Below, piece after piece: positions 39,775 through 47,538 of a stretch of DNA of 64,000 bases. Origin of the DNA: an uncultured Trueperaceae bacterium (GTDB taxonomy: Bacteria; Deinococcota; Deinococci; Deinococcales; Trueperaceae); contig CALKAI010000046.1 in the NCBI GenBank assembly GCA_937983275.1, positions 1,800-65,799 on the forward strand, in the 5' to 3' direction. The translations under genes and the position numbers were made by a program. The notes below the pieces were generated by a model that was given only the letters and a program-made list of their open reading frames with translations, did not search any database and was not told the DNA's origin. Positions within the stretch are counted from its first letter, which is position 1; each line of letters begins with the position of its first letter.

Positions 39775-40410
39775 TTACGGGGCGCCTTCCTCTGCCTGTT
39801 CCCTGGCCCCCTCGAACACGTAGGCCTCGCGCAGGAGGCGCAGGTCGGCGTCGTCCACCACTCCGTCGCGGTTGATGTCACCGGTGATGTTGATGCCCGT
39901 CTCCCCGTAGTGCCGGGCGAGGAGCGCCAGATCGAGCACATCTACCGTGCCGTCGTTGTTCAGGTCCGCGGGGTTCCCGCCCACCGCGGCCAGCTGCGCC
40001 AGGGTGGCATCGTCCAGCCGGGCCGGCTGCCCGGCAGCGATTGCCTGCGACATTATCCCCTCGTCCCGCGGCCCCAGCCCCAGCAGCAGGCCAAACTCGT
40101 GCAGCAGGGCAACCTGCTGCTGCTCGCTCCCCTCCTTGACGAGGACGTCCAGCTGCCCGCCCTCACGCAGAAGGGTGAGGCTAAGGGTGTCCGGCCCCAT
40201 CTGCTCGTCGGAGACAAGGTCGAAGTTCAGCTGACCGTTGGTCGCTACCTCCTCCAGGTTCACTTCGGGAGCAGCAGCGCTCCACTGTGCTGCAGCCTCG
40301 CGGACAGCCTGCCGGAAGGCCGTGTCGTTCACGTCCGGGTCGAAGGAGTAGGTCTGGGCATGCGCCAGCGCGGGAATGAGAAACGCCAGGAGCGCGAGAA
40401 GTTTCCTCAT
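39775..40410 (-). CDS. Secreted protein with degenerate metzincin-like motif and C-terminal type-I-like dockerin
   Basis: The signal peptide is MRKLLALLAFLIPALAHA. LHEFGLLLGLGP resembles matrixin HEFGHxLGLxH with the 2nd and 3rd His replaced. Two dockerin Ca-loop/helix segments are present: DLNNDGTVDVLDLALLARHY and DINRDGVVDDADLRLLREAY. Confidence 0.7.
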   Translation of the reverse strand: MRKLLALLAFLIPALAHAQTYSFDPDVNDTAFRQAVREAAAQWSAAAPEVNLEEVATNGQLNFDLVSDEQMGPDTLSLTLLREGGQLDVLVKEGSEQQQVALLHEFGLLLGLGPRDEGIMSQAIAAGQPARLDDATLAQLAAVGGNPADLNNDGTVDVLDLALLARHYGETGINITGDINRDGVVDDADLRLLREAYVFEGAREQAEEGAP

Positions 40411-40952
40411 CGGCGCGCCTCCAGTTCGGCGCCAACCAAATCGATGACCGTGTTCGCAGGCGCCTCGAAGCCGCCCAGGCGCAGCGAGCCATCCTCGTCG
40501 ATGCCCAGCAGGGTGCCGTCCTGGGAGAGGACGTTGTCGTCCTGCAGGCGGAACAGTCCCTGGTTGAAACCTACCAGTGGCGAGTAGTAGGCGGCGTCGT
40601 AGGCCAGCACCAGTACCCGCTCCGAGAGTTCGAAGGCCGGCATACCCTGGACATCCACCTCCGCAATGCCGGGACCGCTGCCGCCCAGGAAGGCCAGGCT
40701 GGTGCGCTCCTCGGTCTCACCCTCGAGCGCGCGCTCGACGGCGAACTCGACGATGGTCCAGGGCAGGCCGTCGCGCATCTCCACGTCCAGTCCCCGCACC
40801 GTCCCCACGAATGCAACCTCCGTTGCGTCCAGAATCTCGCTAAGCGAGAGCTGGCGGTAGGTGGTGGCGGCAGCAGCGGGGAGCAGGGCAAGGAGCAACA
40901 CCAGCACGGTCGTGTGCAGCAGTGGCCTGCTGGCCTGGGTTGTGCGGGTCAT
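40407..40952 (-). CDS. Secreted hypothetical protein
   Basis: The 181-aa protein has a signal peptide (LLHTTVLVLLLALLPAAAA). It shares 4-nt overlaps with both neighbours. I recognise no domain. Confidence 0.6.
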   Translation of the reverse strand: MTRTTQASRPLLHTTVLVLLLALLPAAAATTYRQLSLSEILDATEVAFVGTVRGLDVEMRDGLPWTIVEFAVERALEGETEERTSLAFLGGSGPGIAEVDVQGMPAFELSERVLVLAYDAAYYSPLVGFNQGLFRLQDDNVLSQDGTLLGIDEDGSLRLGGFEAPANTVIDLVGAELEARR

Positions 40953-41848
40953 TCTGCCTCCTCCGGGCGGGACTCTTCGGCTTCAGCCTCTGCGGTTTCC
41001 GGGTCCTGGTCGCCTGAACCGGGCTCACCGTCGTTCGCTGGTTCTTCGGCAGGCCCGTCGCCGTCCGGCTCATCTTCGCCGTCGGCGGGAGAACCCGCAG
41101 CTTCACCGGGAGTGTCGCCGTCCATGTGCTCGTTGCCGAGGTCGTCGATGATCCGGGCGGTCAGCTGAGTCCGCAGCCGGGCAGGTTCAGTGGGGACGAG
41201 CGTCACCTGGGCCACGTTGGCCGTACCATTCCAGGCGGCGCCCAGGGACGCGAAGTCCACCTGGAGCACGCCCTCGCCAGCGCGCGAGGTGTCCGTGAAG
41301 ATTGCGGTATTGCCGAGGGCACGCACGGCGTTCTCAGGGGCGAGCGTGAAAGCCGCCGGATCCCAGGTGAGCTGAACGCTCGCAGCCCGAACCCGGTGAG
41401 CATCACGCAAACCCAGGCCTATCGTGACGGGCTCGCGGACCTCGGTCGCCGGTGCGTCGACAACCACCTGTGGTGCCGGCCGTTCGCTCACCTGCAGCGT
41501 GTAATCCTCGAAGGTGCTCGACAGGTTGGCGTCGGAGACCGCCACGGTGAACTCGAACTGACCCGTCTCGGTCGGCGTGCCCCTCACCGATCCCCCCTGG
41601 AGTTCCAGGCCGGCCGGGAGCTGTCCGTCCTCCAGCCGGAAGGTGAAGGGCCGCAGCCCGCCGGTGGCCCTGATCGGCTCGTCGTACGGCTCGCCCACCC
41701 AGGCGGTGGGCAGGTTGCGGTTGCCCTGAAGGCGCAGCGCCTCACCAGGCGTCTGGATCTCGCCGCCGCAGGCCGCCAGCGCCAGGATCAGCGCGGCAAG
41801 CAGCGGCAGCAGACGCCTGCGTTGGCTGGCCGCTCTACTCGTGTTCAC
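40949..41848 (-). CDS. Lipoprotein with putative Ig-like (He_PIG/cadherin-like) module, cohesin-like module and acidic disordered tail
   Basis: The lipobox is LLAALILALAAC-GG. The Ig-like pattern is PFTFRLEDGQLPAGLELQGGSVRGTPTETGQFEFTVAVSD. The cohesin-like pattern is VTIGLGLRDAHRVRAASVQLTWDPAAFTL...GVLQVDFASLG...ANVAQVTLVP. I prefer the GTG at 41848; the ORF-track start at 41962 overlaps treS by 115 nt. Confidence 0.65.
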   Translation of the reverse strand: MNTSRAASQRRRLLPLLAALILALAACGGEIQTPGEALRLQGNRNLPTAWVGEPYDEPIRATGGLRPFTFRLEDGQLPAGLELQGGSVRGTPTETGQFEFTVAVSDANLSSTFEDYTLQVSERPAPQVVVDAPATEVREPVTIGLGLRDAHRVRAASVQLTWDPAAFTLAPENAVRALGNTAIFTDTSRAGEGVLQVDFASLGAAWNGTANVAQVTLVPTEPARLRTQLTARIIDDLGNEHMDGDTPGEAAGSPADGEDEPDGDGPAEEPANDGEPGSGDQDPETAEAEAEESRPEEAE

Positions 41849-43485
41849 TACTGGATCCCCAACCACAGGTACTCGTAAGGTTGCAGCACGATGTTCATAT
41901 GGGGCGTGACGGTTCCGAAGACCTGCTTCGTGAACAGGTCTATGAGCTGACGCCCCTCCCATTCGGCCAGGTCCAGCTCCGTGCGCTCCACCTCGGGCGA
42001 CAGGTTGTGCAGGGCCAGCACGATGTCCTCCTCGTACTGGTTCAGGAAAGGCAGGATCGCCTTGTTCTCGGGCCTCAGCAGCTCGAAGCGCCCCTGGCCC
42101 AGCGCCGGATGCTGCTCGCGCGTCTTGATGAGGTTGCGCATCCAGTTGAGGAGGCTGTCGGGATCCTGCTCCTGGGCGGCGACGTTCACCTCGTGGAAGG
42201 CGTAGTCGCCCTCATCGATGACCGGTGCGTACAGCCGGGCCTTCGCCGCCTCCGAGAAGCCGGCATTCTCGCCGCCGTGCCACTGCATGGGCGTGCGGAC
42301 GCCGTTCCGGTCGGGCAGCTCGATGTTGTCACCCATGCCGATCTCGTCGCCGTAGTAGATGATCGGCGTGCCCGGCAAGGTCATCAGCATCGAGTTCATG
42401 AGCCGGATCTTGCGCATGTCGCCCCCCAGCAGCGGCGCCAGCCGCCGGCGTATCCCCACGTTGATCCGCATGCGCGGCTCCGGCGCGTAGGTTTCGTACA
42501 TGAAGGCCCGCTCCTCCTCGGTCACCATCTCCAGGGTCAGTTCGTCGTGATTGCGCAGGAACACGACCCACTGGCAACTCTCGGGGATGGCAGGGGTGTT
42601 TTCCAGGATCCACTCCACACTCTGCCGGCTGCCTTCGGCCACGGCCATGTAGAGTCGGGGCATGACCGGGAAGTGGAAGAGCAGCGGCATCTCGTCGGTG
42701 CCGTCGCCGAAGTAGGCGATGGTGTCCTCCGGCCACTGGTTCACCTCACCCAGCAGGAACGCGTCGGGCTTGATGGTGTCGATGTAGGCGCGCAGCTCCT
42801 TGAGGTACTCGTGGGTCTCTGCCAGATTCTCGTTGTTGGTGCCCTCCCGCTCGATGAGGTAGGGGATCGCGTCCATGCGGAAGCCGTCGATGCCCAGCTC
42901 GAGCCAGAAGCGCACGATGCGCTTCATCTCCTCCCGCACCTCGGGGTTGTCGTAGTTGAGGTCGGGCTGGTGGCTGAAGAAGCGGTGCCAGTAGTACTGG
43001 CCGCGCACCGGATCGAAGGTCCAGTTGGAGGTTTCGGTGTCGGTGAAGATGATGCGCGTACCCGAGTACTTCTCGGGATCGTCGCTCCACACGTACCAGT
43101 CGGACTTCGGGTTGTCCTTACCCTGCCTGGACTCCTGGAACCAGGGGTGGTCGCTGGAGGTGTGGTTCACGACGAGGTCGGTGATGACCTTCAGACCACG
43201 AGCATGAGCCTCGCGCACGAGCTGCTGGAAGTCGTCCAGGGTCCCGTAATCCTCATGGATGTTATAGAAGTCGGTAACATCGTAGCCGTCGTCACGCAGG
43301 GGAGAGGGGCTTATGGGCAGGAGCCAGATGACGTCAACGCCAAGGCTCCTGATGTAGTCGAGTTTCTGGATGACGCCAGCCAGGTCGCCGTGTCCGTCTT
43401 CGTCGGAATCGCGGTAGGCACGAACATAGAGCTCGTAGAGAACAGCCCTCTTAAACCACGTGGTATCGATGTTGGCCATCTTCAC
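41848..43485 (-). CDS. treS: Trehalose synthase (maltose alpha-D-glucosyltransferase), GH13, short form
   Basis: WFKRAVLYELYVRAYRDSDEDGHGDLAGVIQKLDYIRSLGVDVIWLLPI, DLVVNHTSSDHPWF, GIDGFRMDAIPYL, FLLGEVNQW and FLRNHDELTLE are the four GH13 regions in the TreS context. Confidence 0.92.
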   Translation of the reverse strand: MKMANIDTTWFKRAVLYELYVRAYRDSDEDGHGDLAGVIQKLDYIRSLGVDVIWLLPISPSPLRDDGYDVTDFYNIHEDYGTLDDFQQLVREAHARGLKVITDLVVNHTSSDHPWFQESRQGKDNPKSDWYVWSDDPEKYSGTRIIFTDTETSNWTFDPVRGQYYWHRFFSHQPDLNYDNPEVREEMKRIVRFWLELGIDGFRMDAIPYLIEREGTNNENLAETHEYLKELRAYIDTIKPDAFLLGEVNQWPEDTIAYFGDGTDEMPLLFHFPVMPRLYMAVAEGSRQSVEWILENTPAIPESCQWVVFLRNHDELTLEMVTEEERAFMYETYAPEPRMRINVGIRRRLAPLLGGDMRKIRLMNSMLMTLPGTPIIYYGDEIGMGDNIELPDRNGVRTPMQWHGGENAGFSEAAKARLYAPVIDEGDYAFHEVNVAAQEQDPDSLLNWMRNLIKTREQHPALGQGRFELLRPENKAILPFLNQYEEDIVLALHNLSPEVERTELDLAEWEGRQLIDLFTKQVFGTVTPHMNIVLQPYEYLWLGIQ

Positions 43486-43585
43486 TCCTGATGAACGAGA
43501 TTCTACTGGCTACCAACCTAACCCCCATCTGTGCCTGTCGTAGTGGTTACCATGCGCACCGGTCGGTACAGTCGGAAGGAGCGCG

Positions 43586-46500
43586 ATGAAGATCATCACA
43601 CTGCCATACCGTCTAGCCGGACCCGTCCGGGAGTTCCTGCTCTCCCGCGAGGCCCGCGAGCGCTACGGTGTGCACGAGGATCTACTGTCTCTGCGCGGCA
43701 CGCTTCTCGTCGCCGACATGGACGCCGCCCAGCTCCTTGCGCACCGCGTGAACTCGGTGCGGGACGTGGGCCGCAATCCTCACTCCTCTGTCAGTCCCGG
43801 GGAGATTCTGGCCGCCGGAATCCTCCACGAGCTGCAACACCTGCTGGTGATGCGCCTGCGGGAGGAGGACGGGACCCTGCTCAGGGTGCCGCTCGAGCAG
43901 GTTGCGGCGTCGCTGGGCGAGTCCCGGCTGCAATCGTTCCTGGTCAGGTTCGTGAGCAACTTCCCGCCCCGCGGGGTCACCGGTGACGAGGGCGCCCTCG
44001 CCTACCTCCAGGCGAGCACCGATGGGCTGGAGCACAGCGAGCTCGCTTTCGAGGAGCTGCTCCTCCTGGAGACCGCCCGTCAGAACCCCGCACTCGAACG
44101 TCTGCGCGAGCTGTTCACCGCGACCCCGCTGTTCGAGCCGGAGTCGCGCGAGGTCATGGGCCGGCTGCTGGCCGGCGCACGCGAGCAGGACGCGGGTGGC
44201 GACGAGGAACAGGTGGTGCAGGGGGCCCGGAACCTGATCGAGCTCCTCGAGGCGCCCATGCGGAACAGTCCCACGACGCTCTTCGGGCAGCTGCAGTACG
44301 CCCGTGAGCATTGGCTGCCCCTCCTGGGGGAAGCCGGCGCCCGCCTGCTGGAGCTCGTGCTCTTCGGTCAGGATGTTCTGGCAGAGGAGAACAAGCCCAC
44401 CTTCCTGGGCCCCGCCCCCGCGCTGGAGCCGTTCGAGGAGGACGACCTGGTCCCCTCGGCCGAGCTCGACGAGCGGTTCAGCCAGGACGAGCCGTGGATG
44501 AAGGAGCTGGTGCTCGTCGCCAAGAGCACCTACGTGTGGCTGGATCAGCTCTCCCGCAAGTACGGGCGCGAGATCAGCAGCCTCGACCAGATCCCCGGGG
44601 AGGAGCTGGACGAGTTGCGGGCCCGCGGCTTCAACGGGCTGTGGCTCATAGGCATCTGGGAGCGCAGCGATGCCTCGCGCAAGATCAAGCAGCTGCGCGG
44701 GCAGCCGGAAGCGCTCGCCAGTGCGTACGCGATCAACGATTACCGGATCGCCCCGGAATTGGGGGCCGAGCCGGCGCTGCGCGAGCTGGAGAAGCTCGCC
44801 GCCCAGCGCGGGATGCGGCTGGCGAGCGACATGGTACCCAACCACACCGGCATAGACAGCCGCTGGATAATCGAGCACCCGGACTGGTTCATGCAGCTTT
44901 CCGAGTCGCCCTTCCCCGGCTACAGCTTCGACGGTCCCGACCTGTCCTCGGACCCGCGCGTCGGCATCTACCTGGAGGACCACTACTACGACAGCAGCGA
45001 TGCTGCCGTGGTGTTCAAGCGTGTCGACCACGAGAGCGGCGAGGAGCGCTACATCTATCACGGCAACGACGGCACGGCGATGCCGTGGAACGACACGGCG
45101 CAGCTCGACTACCTCAATCCCCGGGTGCGCGAGGCCGTCATCGACACGATAGTGAGCGTCGCGAAGCGCTTCCCGGTGATCCGCTTCGACGCCGCCATGA
45201 CCCTCGCGCGGCGGCACGTGCGCCGGCTCTGGTACCCGAAGCCGGGTGAGGGCGGCGCAATCCCCTCCCGCGCCCGCTACGGCAGCATGAGCGACTCCCA
45301 GTTCGACCGGGCCATGCCGCGCGAGTTCTGGCGCGAGGTGGTGCAGGCGGTCGAACGCGAGGCGCCGGGAACACTCCTGCTGGCCGAGGCCTTCTGGATG
45401 ATGGAGGCCTACTTCGTGCGCCACCTTGGCCTCCATCGCGTCTACAACAGCGCCTTCATGCACATGATGAAGCGTGAGGCGACGGGCGAGTACCGGACGC
45501 TGCTGAAGCGCATCCTGAAGCTCGAGCCGCGCATCCTGGAGCGGTTCGTCAACTTCATGAACAACCCGGACGAGGACACGGCGGTCCTGCAGTTCGGCAA
45601 GGGCGACAAGTACTTCGGGGTGGCCACGGTCATGGCGACGATGCCCGGCCTGCCGATGTTCGGTCACGGGCAGGTCGAGGGTCTGGCCGAGAAGTACGGA
45701 ATGGAGTTCCGCCGCGCCCGCCGCCGCGAACGGGTTGACGAGGAGCTGGTGGAGCGGCACGAGCGGCAACTTAGCCCGCTGTTGCACAGGCGCGCCCAGT
45801 TCGCGTCGGTCGACGGATTCGAGCTGTTCGACTTCGAGGGGCAGGGCGGCGTCGACGAGGAGGTCCTCGCCTACGGCACGGCGGGGCCGGTCCTGGTCCT
45901 GTTCAACAACCGCTTCGGGGAGACCTCGGGCGTCGTGCGCAACGGGGCGCCCAAACGGCGGCCCGACGGCTCGACAGGCAGCATCGACCTGCGCAGCTTC
46001 CTGGGACCAGCTCTGGAGGCCGCCGGCGGGCGGGACCGCGCCGGCGATTTCATCGTGTGCCGGGACCGGGTAACGGACCGCGAGTACCTCTATACCTGGT
46101 CACAGTTGCAGGACGGCCTGCCGGCACACCTGGGCGCCTACGAGCACCGGGTGCTGGACGATTTCCGGTGGGTTGCTGACGTTGATGAGGAGCTGCTGCG
46201 GGCAGTGCATGCCCGGGTGGGCTCCAGGGGGGTGGCTTCTTTGCAGGGTGAGTTGGAGCGGACCCGGTCCGAGCCGGTTATCTCGGCCTGGGATGATTTT
46301 CTTTCGGTGCCGTTTCTCGACGTGGATGCCAGCGTTGGCGCTTACGGTGACTTCCTTGCGGCAGTACGTGAAACGGAGGGGGAGGATGAGAGCTCCTCCA
46401 GCAGTGGTGCACGGGAGCGCTTCCGGGCACTGGTTCATGCTGCCACGGCCTTCCAGTACGGGCCCGGGCAGGTGCAGGAGGCGTTCGAGCGCTGCGCGCT

Positions 46501-47020
46501 CACGGTCCAGTCGGTCATTGGTCTCTTGCCGCTGGAGGAGGGCACTTTCGAGCGTTTCTACCTGGAGGATGCGCTGCTTAGCGGCGAGCACACCACCGGC
46601 GACTCGTTCGATCCGGATCTGGTCACGAGGGTGATTCCTGCCGTGAATGGCGCCTTGCGGGAGCAGCTGCTGGAGGAGCCGGCTGCGGGCGGCGATCCGG
46701 GGGCGACGGCAGGCGCCGAGTACCGGATTGGCGGGGAGCCGTCGGTGGAGTTCAGCGAGGTGCTGAATTTCCTGCACGAGCTGCTGCAGTCCGAGGAGGG
46801 CACGGAGCTTCTCGGGGTCAACCGCTGGGAAGGGGAGGAGTACTTCGACCGGGATGCCTACCGGCTGCTGGCCAGCTCCTACCTGTTCGCCCTGGCGGCC
46901 ATCCGCGGCTCATCCACCGGTGTGGTTACCGGTCTTGCCGACGTGCTGGAGGAGATCGCCGAATTCGAGGAGGGCAGCCAGTACCGCCTGGAGGCGCTGC
47001 GCGCCGGTCAGCGGCCGTAG
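43586..47020 (+). CDS. Very large (1144 aa) atypical alpha-amylase-family (GH13-like) protein with long N- and C-terminal extensions
   Basis: The central domain reads GFNGLWLIGIWERS. Region I is ASDMVPNHTG. Region II is VIRFDAAMTL. Region III is LLLAEAFWM. Region IV is the variant FMNNPDED. About 330 aa N-terminal and about 400 aa C-terminal carry no motif I recognise. Confidence 0.85.
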   Translation: MKIITLPYRLAGPVREFLLSREARERYGVHEDLLSLRGTLLVADMDAAQLLAHRVNSVRDVGRNPHSSVSPGEILAAGILHELQHLLVMRLREEDGTLLRVPLEQVAASLGESRLQSFLVRFVSNFPPRGVTGDEGALAYLQASTDGLEHSELAFEELLLLETARQNPALERLRELFTATPLFEPESREVMGRLLAGAREQDAGGDEEQVVQGARNLIELLEAPMRNSPTTLFGQLQYAREHWLPLLGEAGARLLELVLFGQDVLAEENKPTFLGPAPALEPFEEDDLVPSAELDERFSQDEPWMKELVLVAKSTYVWLDQLSRKYGREISSLDQIPGEELDELRARGFNGLWLIGIWERSDASRKIKQLRGQPEALASAYAINDYRIAPELGAEPALRELEKLAAQRGMRLASDMVPNHTGIDSRWIIEHPDWFMQLSESPFPGYSFDGPDLSSDPRVGIYLEDHYYDSSDAAVVFKRVDHESGEERYIYHGNDGTAMPWNDTAQLDYLNPRVREAVIDTIVSVAKRFPVIRFDAAMTLARRHVRRLWYPKPGEGGAIPSRARYGSMSDSQFDRAMPREFWREVVQAVEREAPGTLLLAEAFWMMEAYFVRHLGLHRVYNSAFMHMMKREATGEYRTLLKRILKLEPRILERFVNFMNNPDEDTAVLQFGKGDKYFGVATVMATMPGLPMFGHGQVEGLAEKYGMEFRRARRRERVDEELVERHERQLSPLLHRRAQFASVDGFELFDFEGQGGVDEEVLAYGTAGPVLVLFNNRFGETSGVVRNGAPKRRPDGSTGSIDLRSFLGPALEAAGGRDRAGDFIVCRDRVTDREYLYTWSQLQDGLPAHLGAYEHRVLDDFRWVADVDEELLRAVHARVGSRGVASLQGELERTRSEPVISAWDDFLSVPFLDVDASVGAYGDFLAAVRETEGEDESSSSSGARERFRALVHAATAFQYGPGQVQEAFERCALTVQSVIGLLPLEEGTFERFYLEDALLSGEHTTGDSFDPDLVTRVIPAVNGALREQLLEEPAAGGDPGATAGAEYRIGGEPSVEFSEVLNFLHELLQSEEGTELLGVNRWEGEEYFDRDAYRLLASSYLFALAAIRGSSTGVVTGLADVLEEIAEFEEGSQYRLEALRAGQRP

Positions 47021-47538
47021 GAGCCGGACAGGTCCCTGATGCGCCGGGCGCTCAGGTGGGTGAGGGCGAGCGCGAGGGCATCGGCGGTGTGTGAGCTGTC
47101 CGGCGCCGCCGTCAGCTTGAGGATGCCGCGCACCATGAAGGCGACCTGCTCCTTGGACGCCCGGCCGGTACCTACCAGCGTCTGCTTGACCTCCATGGGC
47201 CCGTACTCGAAGACGGGCACTCCCTGGCGTTCGGCCGCCAGCAGCGCGACACCCACGGCCTGGCCCACCTTGAACGAGGTATCCCGTTGCCGGTGGAAGA
47301 ACTGGCCTTCGAGGGCGATGGCGTCGGGCCTGTGGCTGGCGAGGAACTCCTCGACGCCGTCGTAGATGCGTGAGAGCCTGTCGGCGACGCGGGCCCGGCT
47401 GCTCGTGACGACGAGTTGGGCGGCCAGAAAGACCTGCTGGCGCCCCTCCTCCCGGACGGCGCCCAAGCCCAGGTTGGCGAGTCCGGGATCGATGCCTACG
47501 ACAGTAATTGGGGAGTGCTTTGGGGCCGTCACCACCAT
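47008..47538 (-). CDS. ruvC: Crossover junction endodeoxyribonuclease RuvC
   Basis: VVGIDPGLANLG, IALEGQFF and SHTADALALALTH carry the RuvC catalytic acidic residues. Its 3' end overlaps the convergent GH13 gene by 13 nt. Confidence 0.92.
   Translation of the reverse strand: MVVTAPKHSPITVVGIDPGLANLGLGAVREEGRQQVFLAAQLVVTSSRARVADRLSRIYDGVEEFLASHRPDAIALEGQFFHRQRDTSFKVGQAVGVALLAAERQGVPVFEYGPMEVKQTLVGTGRASKEQVAFMVRGILKLTAAPDSSHTADALALALTHLSARRIRDLSGSYGR

Follow-up and report, generated by a model that had tools for sequence, protein, structure and literature searches.

We analysed a 64-kb stretch of contig CALKAI010000046.1 from an uncultured Trueperaceae bacterium (the whole stretch is referred to below as the window) and, within it, an open reading frame (ORF) at positions 43586–47020 of the + strand. 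The ORF (P0001) starts with ATG and encodes a protein of 1144 residues that belongs to glycoside hydrolase family 13 (GH13); we use the name giant GH13 both for this protein and for its family. The bias at third codon positions is strong (GC3 of 0.88), and a ribosome-binding site, GGAAGGAG (43574–43581, + strand), lies 4 nt before the start codon. The N-terminus of the protein (MKIITLPYRLAGPVREF...) has no signal-peptide character in its sequence, and for this reason giant GH13 should be cytoplasmic, as far as can be judged from sequence; a reading as a secreted amylase was discarded on the same ground.

Divergently oriented to this ORF, across an intergenic gap of 100 bp (43486–43585), lies treS, the gene for maltose α-D-glucosyltransferase (41848–43485, − strand; 545 residues), which matches TIGR02456 with 838 bits against a cutoff of 678. 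As listed, treS starts at the GTG at 43485 (VKMANID...), although the ATG at 43479, two codons downstream, is the likelier start. A promoter scan of the gap gave no match to the sigma-70 consensus. The encoded TreS is a stand-alone enzyme, without the fused maltokinase (Mak) seen elsewhere. An earlier note on this DNA, made from the letters alone, had described such a divergent pair and had seen neither a maltokinase gene nor glgB in the window, and both statements hold: tblastn searches of the window with GlgE, maltokinase, TreZ/GlgB-like, GH57, OtsA, GlgA and MalQ queries revealed no further glucan gene; treS and the giant GH13 ORF are its only GH13 genes. The largest of the other ORFs, among them those for MMPL, FtsX, SBP and BshC, are unrelated.

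Pfam recognizes only the central part of giant GH13, as PF00128 alone (residues 339–711; 44.6 bits, with the cutoff at 22). Pfam has no match for the first 337 or for the last 436 residues, in keeping with the earlier note, in which no motif could be named for either extension. Structure prediction, which that note had proposed for the extensions, revealed a helical domain at both ends. The full-length AlphaFold2 model, built from 30 sequences (predicted local distance difference test score, pLDDT, of 77), consists of four parts: a helical N-terminal domain, a (β/α)8 barrel, a β-sandwich domain C and a helical C-terminal domain. The N-terminal domain (residues 1–300; 43586–44485, + strand, as are all features of the ORF given below) is all-helical and family-specific. 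Folded alone with 80 sequences, among which identity is 27–40%, it reached a pLDDT of 86.7 and a predicted template-modeling (TM) score, pTM, of 0.83. Comparison of this model with PDB folds gave no match (best E of 0.86, TM-score below 0.2), and neither did a search of its sequence against PDB; the 300-residue domain is thus, on the evidence of the model, a candidate for a new fold. The catalytic barrel (residues ~305–740; 44498–45805), identified by both PF00128 and Foldseek, carries a long domain B of about 110 residues in the model. With the full model as query, Foldseek matched GH13 structures at E of 1.9e-11 to 1e-8, but these were generic GH13 matches without an informative best subfamily, and the extra domains remained unmatched. 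Domain C (residues ~745–865; 45818–46180), with model strands at 746–863, can be aligned to the C-domain of GlgE by hhalign. The helical C-terminal domain (residues 868–1144; 46187–47017) has a variable middle and a conserved end (N..EG..YF.R.AYR.L ... SGYR...L), and its sequence had no match in PDB.

All four catalytic-region motifs quoted in the earlier note are present, and their conservation could be followed in 267 family members that are ~42–61% identical to the window protein. Region I, DMVPNH (D415–H420; 44828–44845), has D415, N419 and H420 in all 267 members. Region II, IRFDAAMTL (I532–L540; 45179–45205), includes R533 and the predicted nucleophile D535 and has no Lys or His at its end. 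It is followed by a family-specific insert of ~37 residues (541–577; 45206–45316), absent from GlgE according to hhalign and poorly modeled (pLDDT below 50), with four invariant residues (R547, W549, P551 and R562) and with H544 kept in 264 members. Region III, LLAEAFW (L598–W604; 45377–45397), contains the predicted general acid/base E601 within an [AS]EAF pattern as in GlgE. Region IV, FVNFMNNPD (45545–45571), which ends in the predicted transition-state stabilizer D662, has N-x-P-D, again as in GlgE; in the corresponding NNPDED stretch (N659–D664), Pro661 takes the place of the usual His. Region VII, PGLPMFGHGQ (45644–45673), ends with GQ (H694 and Q696 in 267/267; G695 in 266/267).

What characterizes a GH13 enzyme is therefore in place, namely a barrel detected by the family model, D535/E601/D662, R533 and D415/N419/H420, whereas two features that the family usually but not always shows, the region-IV His (NHD) and the Lys or His ending region II, are absent. 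The catalytic triad D535/E601/D662 is invariant, as are about 40 other positions. Among these are Y381, D415, H420 and R533 of the −1 subsite, then N419, A536, A537, M538, A600, F603, W604, P661 and E663 (each 267/267), as well as R360, H492-G-N-D-G496, W501, D503, Q506, R547, W549, R562, E607, R612, R618, H694 and Q696; N660 is Asn in 264 members. Complete identity at these positions, in a set with an overall identity of only ~42–61%, means that the motifs are not a matter of chance. Giant GH13 is strongly constrained and, as the triad is invariant, presumably an active retaining enzyme and not a pseudo-enzyme.

The family turned out to be very large. In a word-indexed search, 7999 of 8000 scored candidates matched giant GH13, which corresponds to some 8000 or more clusters at 90% identity, most of them 1100–1300 residues long. 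When the 50%-identity representatives were searched exhaustively, 926 clusters matched at E ≤ 1e-30, itself a lower bound, and a one-genome-per-species collection contained at least 590 relatives among the 600 pattern matches listed. The hosts span more than ten phyla and, among the matches listed, include Trueperaceae/Deinococcales, Chloroflexota, Acidobacteriota, KSB1, Caldithrix, Spirochaetota, Verrucomicrobia, Aminicenantes, Thermodesulfobacteriota, Chlamydiota and Actinomycetota. Names given to the relatives are generic ("alpha-amylase family glycosyl hydrolase", "glycosidase", "hypothetical protein"). The best named ones are from Trueperaceae (48–52% identity), and the flanks of the gene are syntenic with metagenome-assembled genomes (MAGs) of that family. 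The protein, which the earlier note had called atypical, is therefore ordinary for its kind. One relative, P0233 (1164 residues), has an N-terminal MerR-type helix-turn-helix and, behind it, an incomplete GH13 part, which is cut off by the contig end or partial for another reason; this may represent a fusion or else a gene-calling artefact.

A phylogeny, another analysis suggested in the earlier note, placed the whole giant GH13 family in one clade with 99/97 support in the maximum-likelihood tree, with long branches to the GlgE, TreS, cyclomaltodextrinase-like and TreZ sequences. The NCBIfam scan returned sub-threshold fragments only, with no model reaching its cutoff. Our literature search found no paper on the family and no characterized member, and GH13 subfamilies are described there only up to GH13_49. 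Judged by sequence, giant GH13 is a distinct GH13 clade for which the search found no characterized member or CAZy subfamily.

Gene neighborhoods were surveyed by clustering in 80 species-representative loci together with targeted tblastn, some queries being run on 89 loci. A glucan or trehalose gene occurs nearby in at least 21 of the 80 loci; short contigs, of which there are many, make this a minimum. In Trueperaceae (locus L001), KSB1 (L006), Alkalispirochaeta (L013) and Limnocylindrales (L025), glgE and a treS–mak fusion are directly adjacent to the giant GH13 gene. Most of these sets form tight same-strand operons, with a 4-nt overlap with glgE in L025; the operons of L025, L006 and L066 (the last from a spirochaete) are tight, their genes overlapping by 4 nt or lying a short distance apart. 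The KSB1 operon (L006:3378–18385) comprises six same-strand genes: giant GH13, glgE, treS–mak, treZ, a GH57/DUF3536 gene (819 residues) and another GH13 gene, which is cut by the contig end and is possibly treY. In the Alkalispirochaeta MAG, a gene for a sigma-54 enhancer-binding activator (L013:2739–4523) lies directly upstream of the glgE–treS/mak–giant GH13 operon.

Genes for other enzymes acting on α-glucans recur as well. A GH57/DUF3536 gene is found within 10 kb in 13 of the 80 loci, mostly convergent and just downstream; one characterized member of that group has been suggested to be a 4-α-glucanotransferase (PMC11206854). A GH77 malQ gene is located immediately upstream of giant GH13 in two spirochaetes (L066 and L079), a further locus (L018) brings giant GH13 together with GH57/DUF3536, glgA, glgC and malQ genes, and a cyclomaltodextrinase-like GH13 is present in three loci. 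The association extends to gene fusions. P0157 (L086) joins GH77 MalQ to giant GH13, while P0240 and P0243 join giant GH13 to GlgA of glycosyltransferase family 5 (GT5), P0240 being found on two independent metagenome assemblies. In two loci (L084:2312–10860 and L085:94–6006), a fusion of a GlgC-like nucleotidyltransferase and phosphoglucomutase is followed by a GalT-like protein (PF01087) and then by giant GH13–GlgA.

In Trueperaceae, the backbone around the gene is conserved in 11 relatives: genes for a He_PIG lipoprotein, a 181-residue protein and a dockerin protein (− strand), giant GH13 (+), then ruvC and glnA (−). The junction just upstream of giant GH13 is where the genomes differ. It is occupied by treS in the window and in three relatives, by glgE and treS–mak in L001 (4283–9647, −), and by otsA and otsB in L087 (5492–7554, −). 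Since three non-homologous sets of trehalose genes occupy one junction, their presence argues for a functional or regulatory tie of giant GH13 to trehalose. The link is wider than the one to TreS that the earlier note had drawn, reaching to GlgA, MalQ, GH57 and other trehalose routes. In the window, the He_PIG lipoprotein/181-residue protein/dockerin protein operon continues from treS on the same strand, with abutting or overlapping genes (39775–41962, −); the order of treS followed by He_PIG is kept in L081–L083, with a 4-nt overlap in L081. On the other side, the 3′-end of the convergent ruvC (47008–47538, −) overlaps the stop-codon region of giant GH13 by 13 nt (47008–47020), and this convergent overlap is longer in relatives (for example, 53 nt in L081).

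How might such a protein work? It has a GH13 fold and intact catalytic residues, it stands apart from known subfamilies, and it is linked to glucan and trehalose genes both by neighborhood and by fusion. It is probably an active α-glucan enzyme of glycogen or trehalose metabolism other than GlgE. As a cytoplasmic retaining enzyme it would use the double displacement common to GH13 on α-1,4-glucan, be it glycogen or maltodextrin, with D535 as the nucleophile, E601 as the acid/base and D662 stabilizing the transition state, and it would do so as a separate enzyme alongside GlgE, TreS, MalQ, GH57 and GlgA. The substrate, hydrolysis in preference to chain transfer, and the coupling to TreS are inferred. 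Our tentative proposal, which we favor without considering it established, is that giant GH13 is a hydrolase that feeds maltose to TreS: it would cut stored glycogen or maltodextrin to maltose or short malto-oligosaccharides, and the divergently encoded TreS would isomerize these products to trehalose, giving a glycogen-to-trehalose route; elsewhere, MalQ or GH57 enzymes may recycle the short dextrins released. We favor hydrolysis because hydrolases, including a maltogenic amylase, are the closest characterized relatives by sequence, because TreS of the window stands alone without a Mak fusion, and because 4-α-glucanotransferases are frequent neighbors.

A number of observations weigh against this proposal. 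About three quarters of the loci show no glucan or trehalose neighbor. The treS pairing taken alone lends it weak support, since it lies within a general synteny block (ruvC, glnA and the cohesin operon) and the junction is free of trehalose genes in five Trueperaceae relatives; the otsAB adjacency, for its part, provides no link to maltose. The glgB-like slot in glgE–treS–mak operons and the fusion to GlgA would be expected of a biosynthetic transferase more than of a degradative amylase. Finally, the missing region-IV His and region-II Lys or His, together with many extra invariant Arg and His residues, suggest that the substrate may not be plain glucan.

A different possibility is that giant GH13 is a glucan-chain transferase (branching, disproportionating or chain-remodeling) that provides the "fourth activity" of GlgE- or GlgA-type synthesis and fills the usual slot of GlgB. 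No glgB is in view in the glgE–treS/mak–giant GH13 operons of L013, L025, L001 and L006, nor in L018, and the operon encoding the GlgC-like/phosphoglucomutase fusion, the GalT-like protein and giant GH13–GlgA has no branching enzyme in view either. In addition, tblastn with a TreZ query found no CBM48-type GH13 (GlgB or GlgX) within 10 kb in any of the 89 loci, although this negative is weak, as a divergent GlgB may escape a TreZ-based search and GH57 branching enzymes lay outside it. An extremely constrained active site would also suit a transferase. On the other hand, giant GH13 has neither CBM48 nor the GlgB N-terminal domains, and its nearest characterized sequence relatives are hydrolases. 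We regard a chain transferase as a doubtful but serious competitor to the maltose-feeding hydrolase. Somewhat more doubtful is a broader conjecture, according to which giant GH13 would be an unrecognized core enzyme of α-glucan synthesis, either of a branching or chain-transfer type that replaces GlgB beside GlgE/TreS–Mak and GlgA in many phyla, or of a type that depends on phosphate or a sugar phosphate, the anion being bound by the family-specific loop with its many invariant Arg and His residues; in both cases the two helical domains may bind the glycogen particle or a partner.

The resemblance to GlgE raises the phosphate theme in its own right, and giant GH13 might be a phosphorylase, or else a further maltosyltransferase of the GlgE type that uses maltose-1-phosphate. 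The GlgE-like variants that the earlier note named, AEAF in region III and N-x-PD in region IV, do occur in genuine GlgEs: those encoded beside family members, identified by PF11896 and PF21702, have FL[AS]EAFTRP and NFWPNTPDIL, and in tblastn of GlgE against the window regions III–IV of giant GH13 match at E of 2e-5 (the region-I stretch more weakly, at 8e-4). The linkage to treS and treS–mak points the same way, as do invariant basic residues beyond the GH13 canon (R360, R547, R562, R612, R618, H492 and H694, with near-invariant H544), several of which sit in the family-specific loop after region II. However, in members from four phyla a true GlgE is encoded next to giant GH13, beside which a second would be redundant; giant GH13 has neither the N/S nor the C domains of GlgE, differs from it in regions I and II, and overall is no nearer to it than to TreS or cyclomaltodextrinase-like enzymes. 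With no maltokinase in the window and no Mak fused to its TreS, we consider a phosphate-dependent activity unlikely. Less likely still is an enzyme that forms or uses trehalose, for instance a trehalose:glucan transferase, or a maltooligosyltrehalose synthase of the TreY type working on the ends of glycogen. Weak TreY matches through DMVPNH and its flanks (TIGR02401, 3hje, 5zcr and 1iv8), the three non-homologous trehalose gene sets at one junction and treZ in the KSB1 operon would be in line with it, but the likeness to TreY is seen only at region I (22 bits against a model cutoff of 499), treZ is adjacent in just one of 89 loci, and the KSB1 operon itself apparently includes a TreY-like GH13 where the contig stops. 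The neighborhood links could, lastly, be coincidental, with giant GH13 being a general cytoplasmic amylase-like protein or a non-catalytic scaffold without any specific tie to TreS. The many loci without a glucan or trehalose neighbor and the position of the Trueperaceae pairing inside a broadly syntenic block would be expected in that case. Independent fusions to GlgA and MalQ and the tightly packed operons of L025, L066 and L006 speak against it, and the invariant catalytic triad argues against a pseudo-enzyme, so that we give coincidence very little credence.

Whichever activity is eventually assigned, the family matters by its extent and its company. Its active site is nearly frozen, yet no characterized member, specific model or CAZy subfamily was found for it, and it is repeatedly linked to both main bacterial glycogen routes (GlgC/GlgA and GlgE) and to trehalose synthesis. 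In environmental bacteria such as Trueperaceae and Chloroflexota, glycogen and trehalose matter both as a carbon store and in the tolerance of desiccation and osmotic stress. Once defined, the activity would fill a gap in the map of α-glucan pathways, justify a new GH13 subfamily and perhaps provide a new starch-modifying enzyme.

Among known systems, GlgE (GH13_3; Streptomyces coelicolor GlgEI, 4u2z, and the Mycobacterium tuberculosis enzyme, 4u33) is the one that the earlier note had pointed to. The two share the GH13 barrel, an alignable domain C, [AS]EAF in region III, N-x-P-D with Pro for the usual His in region IV, and HPxWF after region I, and they are encoded in the same operons with treS–mak. 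Unlike GlgE, giant GH13 has neither the GlgE N/S domain (PF11896) nor GLGE_C (PF21702), with neither detected at E ≤ 0.1, whereas both are present in the neighboring GlgEs of L001, L006, L013 and L025. Region I is DMVPNH in giant GH13 and D.A.QCS.DH in GlgE; region II is RFDAAMT as opposed to FRVDNPHTK. Giant GH13 further differs by the 37-residue insert after region II and by the helical domains of 300 residues at its N-terminus and 280 at its C-terminus, and it co-occurs with genuine GlgE. By hhalign its score is 70 with GlgE, 74 with TreS and 77.5 with the cyclomaltodextrinase-like enzymes, and in Foldseek the GlgE structures rank 38–48, after GTA, TVAII, TreS and NPDE. Lacking the GlgE-specific domains, having other regions I and II, forming its own clade and being no closer to GlgE than to TreS by hhalign, giant GH13 was ruled out as a GlgE.

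In single-sequence and profile searches against PDB, the best matches were 3DHU, a Lactobacillus plantarum α-amylase, and 4GKL, the GH13_48 maltogenic amylase AmyB of Thermotoga neapolitana (E of 1e-7 to 1e-9 over ~60–100 residues around region I); these matches are driven by region I, and GlgE is missing from the lists. Both proteins are of the cytoplasmic type, as is giant GH13, and share with it HP[DE]WF after region I, a region V ending in L-D, a region VII ending in GQ, and the MPxEFW helix before region III. It is only at this MPxEFW stretch, just past the insert 541–577, that the alignment with 3DHU begins. Signatures reported for GH13_48 are a Cys immediately preceding the nucleophile (in 81% of members), G-x-R opening region II, NHD ending region IV, L-[DN] ending region V, GQ ending region VII and a plain A-B-C architecture, with the GQ ending also reported for GH13_49 and GH13_38 (Marecek et al. 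2024, PMC11239784). Giant GH13 has the endings of region VII (G695-Q696) and region V (L507-D508). In place of the Cys, however, it has F534 (261/267), region II opens with V-I-R and not G-x-R, region IV has NPD and not NHD, and the protein is more than twice as long as AmyB or 3DHU, with two helical domains beyond the A-B-C architecture. With no Cys, no G-x-R, no NHD and these extra domains, membership in GH13_48 was rejected.

TreS (GH13_16) shares with giant GH13 the fold and an R-x-D-A type region II, and TreS structures 4lxf and 5gtw are among the top Foldseek matches. In contrast to giant GH13, TreS has GEV in region III and NHD in region IV and falls into a separate clade; with TIGR02456 at 28.4 bits against a cutoff of 678, identity as TreS was ruled out. 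Identity as TreY was likewise ruled out (TIGR02401 at 22.1 bits against 499, with the similarity confined to region I). The likeness to GlgB (GH13_8/9) is of another sort: giant GH13 takes the operon position usual for glgB beside glgE–treS–pep2 and is fused or adjacent to glgA. Region II of GlgB, R-V-D-A-V-A-S-M, also has no terminal Lys or His, like R-F-D-A-A-M of giant GH13. At the same time, CBM48 and the GlgB N-terminal domains are absent from giant GH13, and there is no detectable specific similarity to GlgB. The earlier note had left a choice between a different TreS-linked α-glucan enzyme and an uncharacterized GH13 subfamily, and the present picture (not GlgE, outside GH13_48, a well-supported clade of its own and no NCBIfam model at cutoff) agrees with it. 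Set against all these enzymes, giant GH13 is a variant of the well-known GH13 kind and not a new kind of system.

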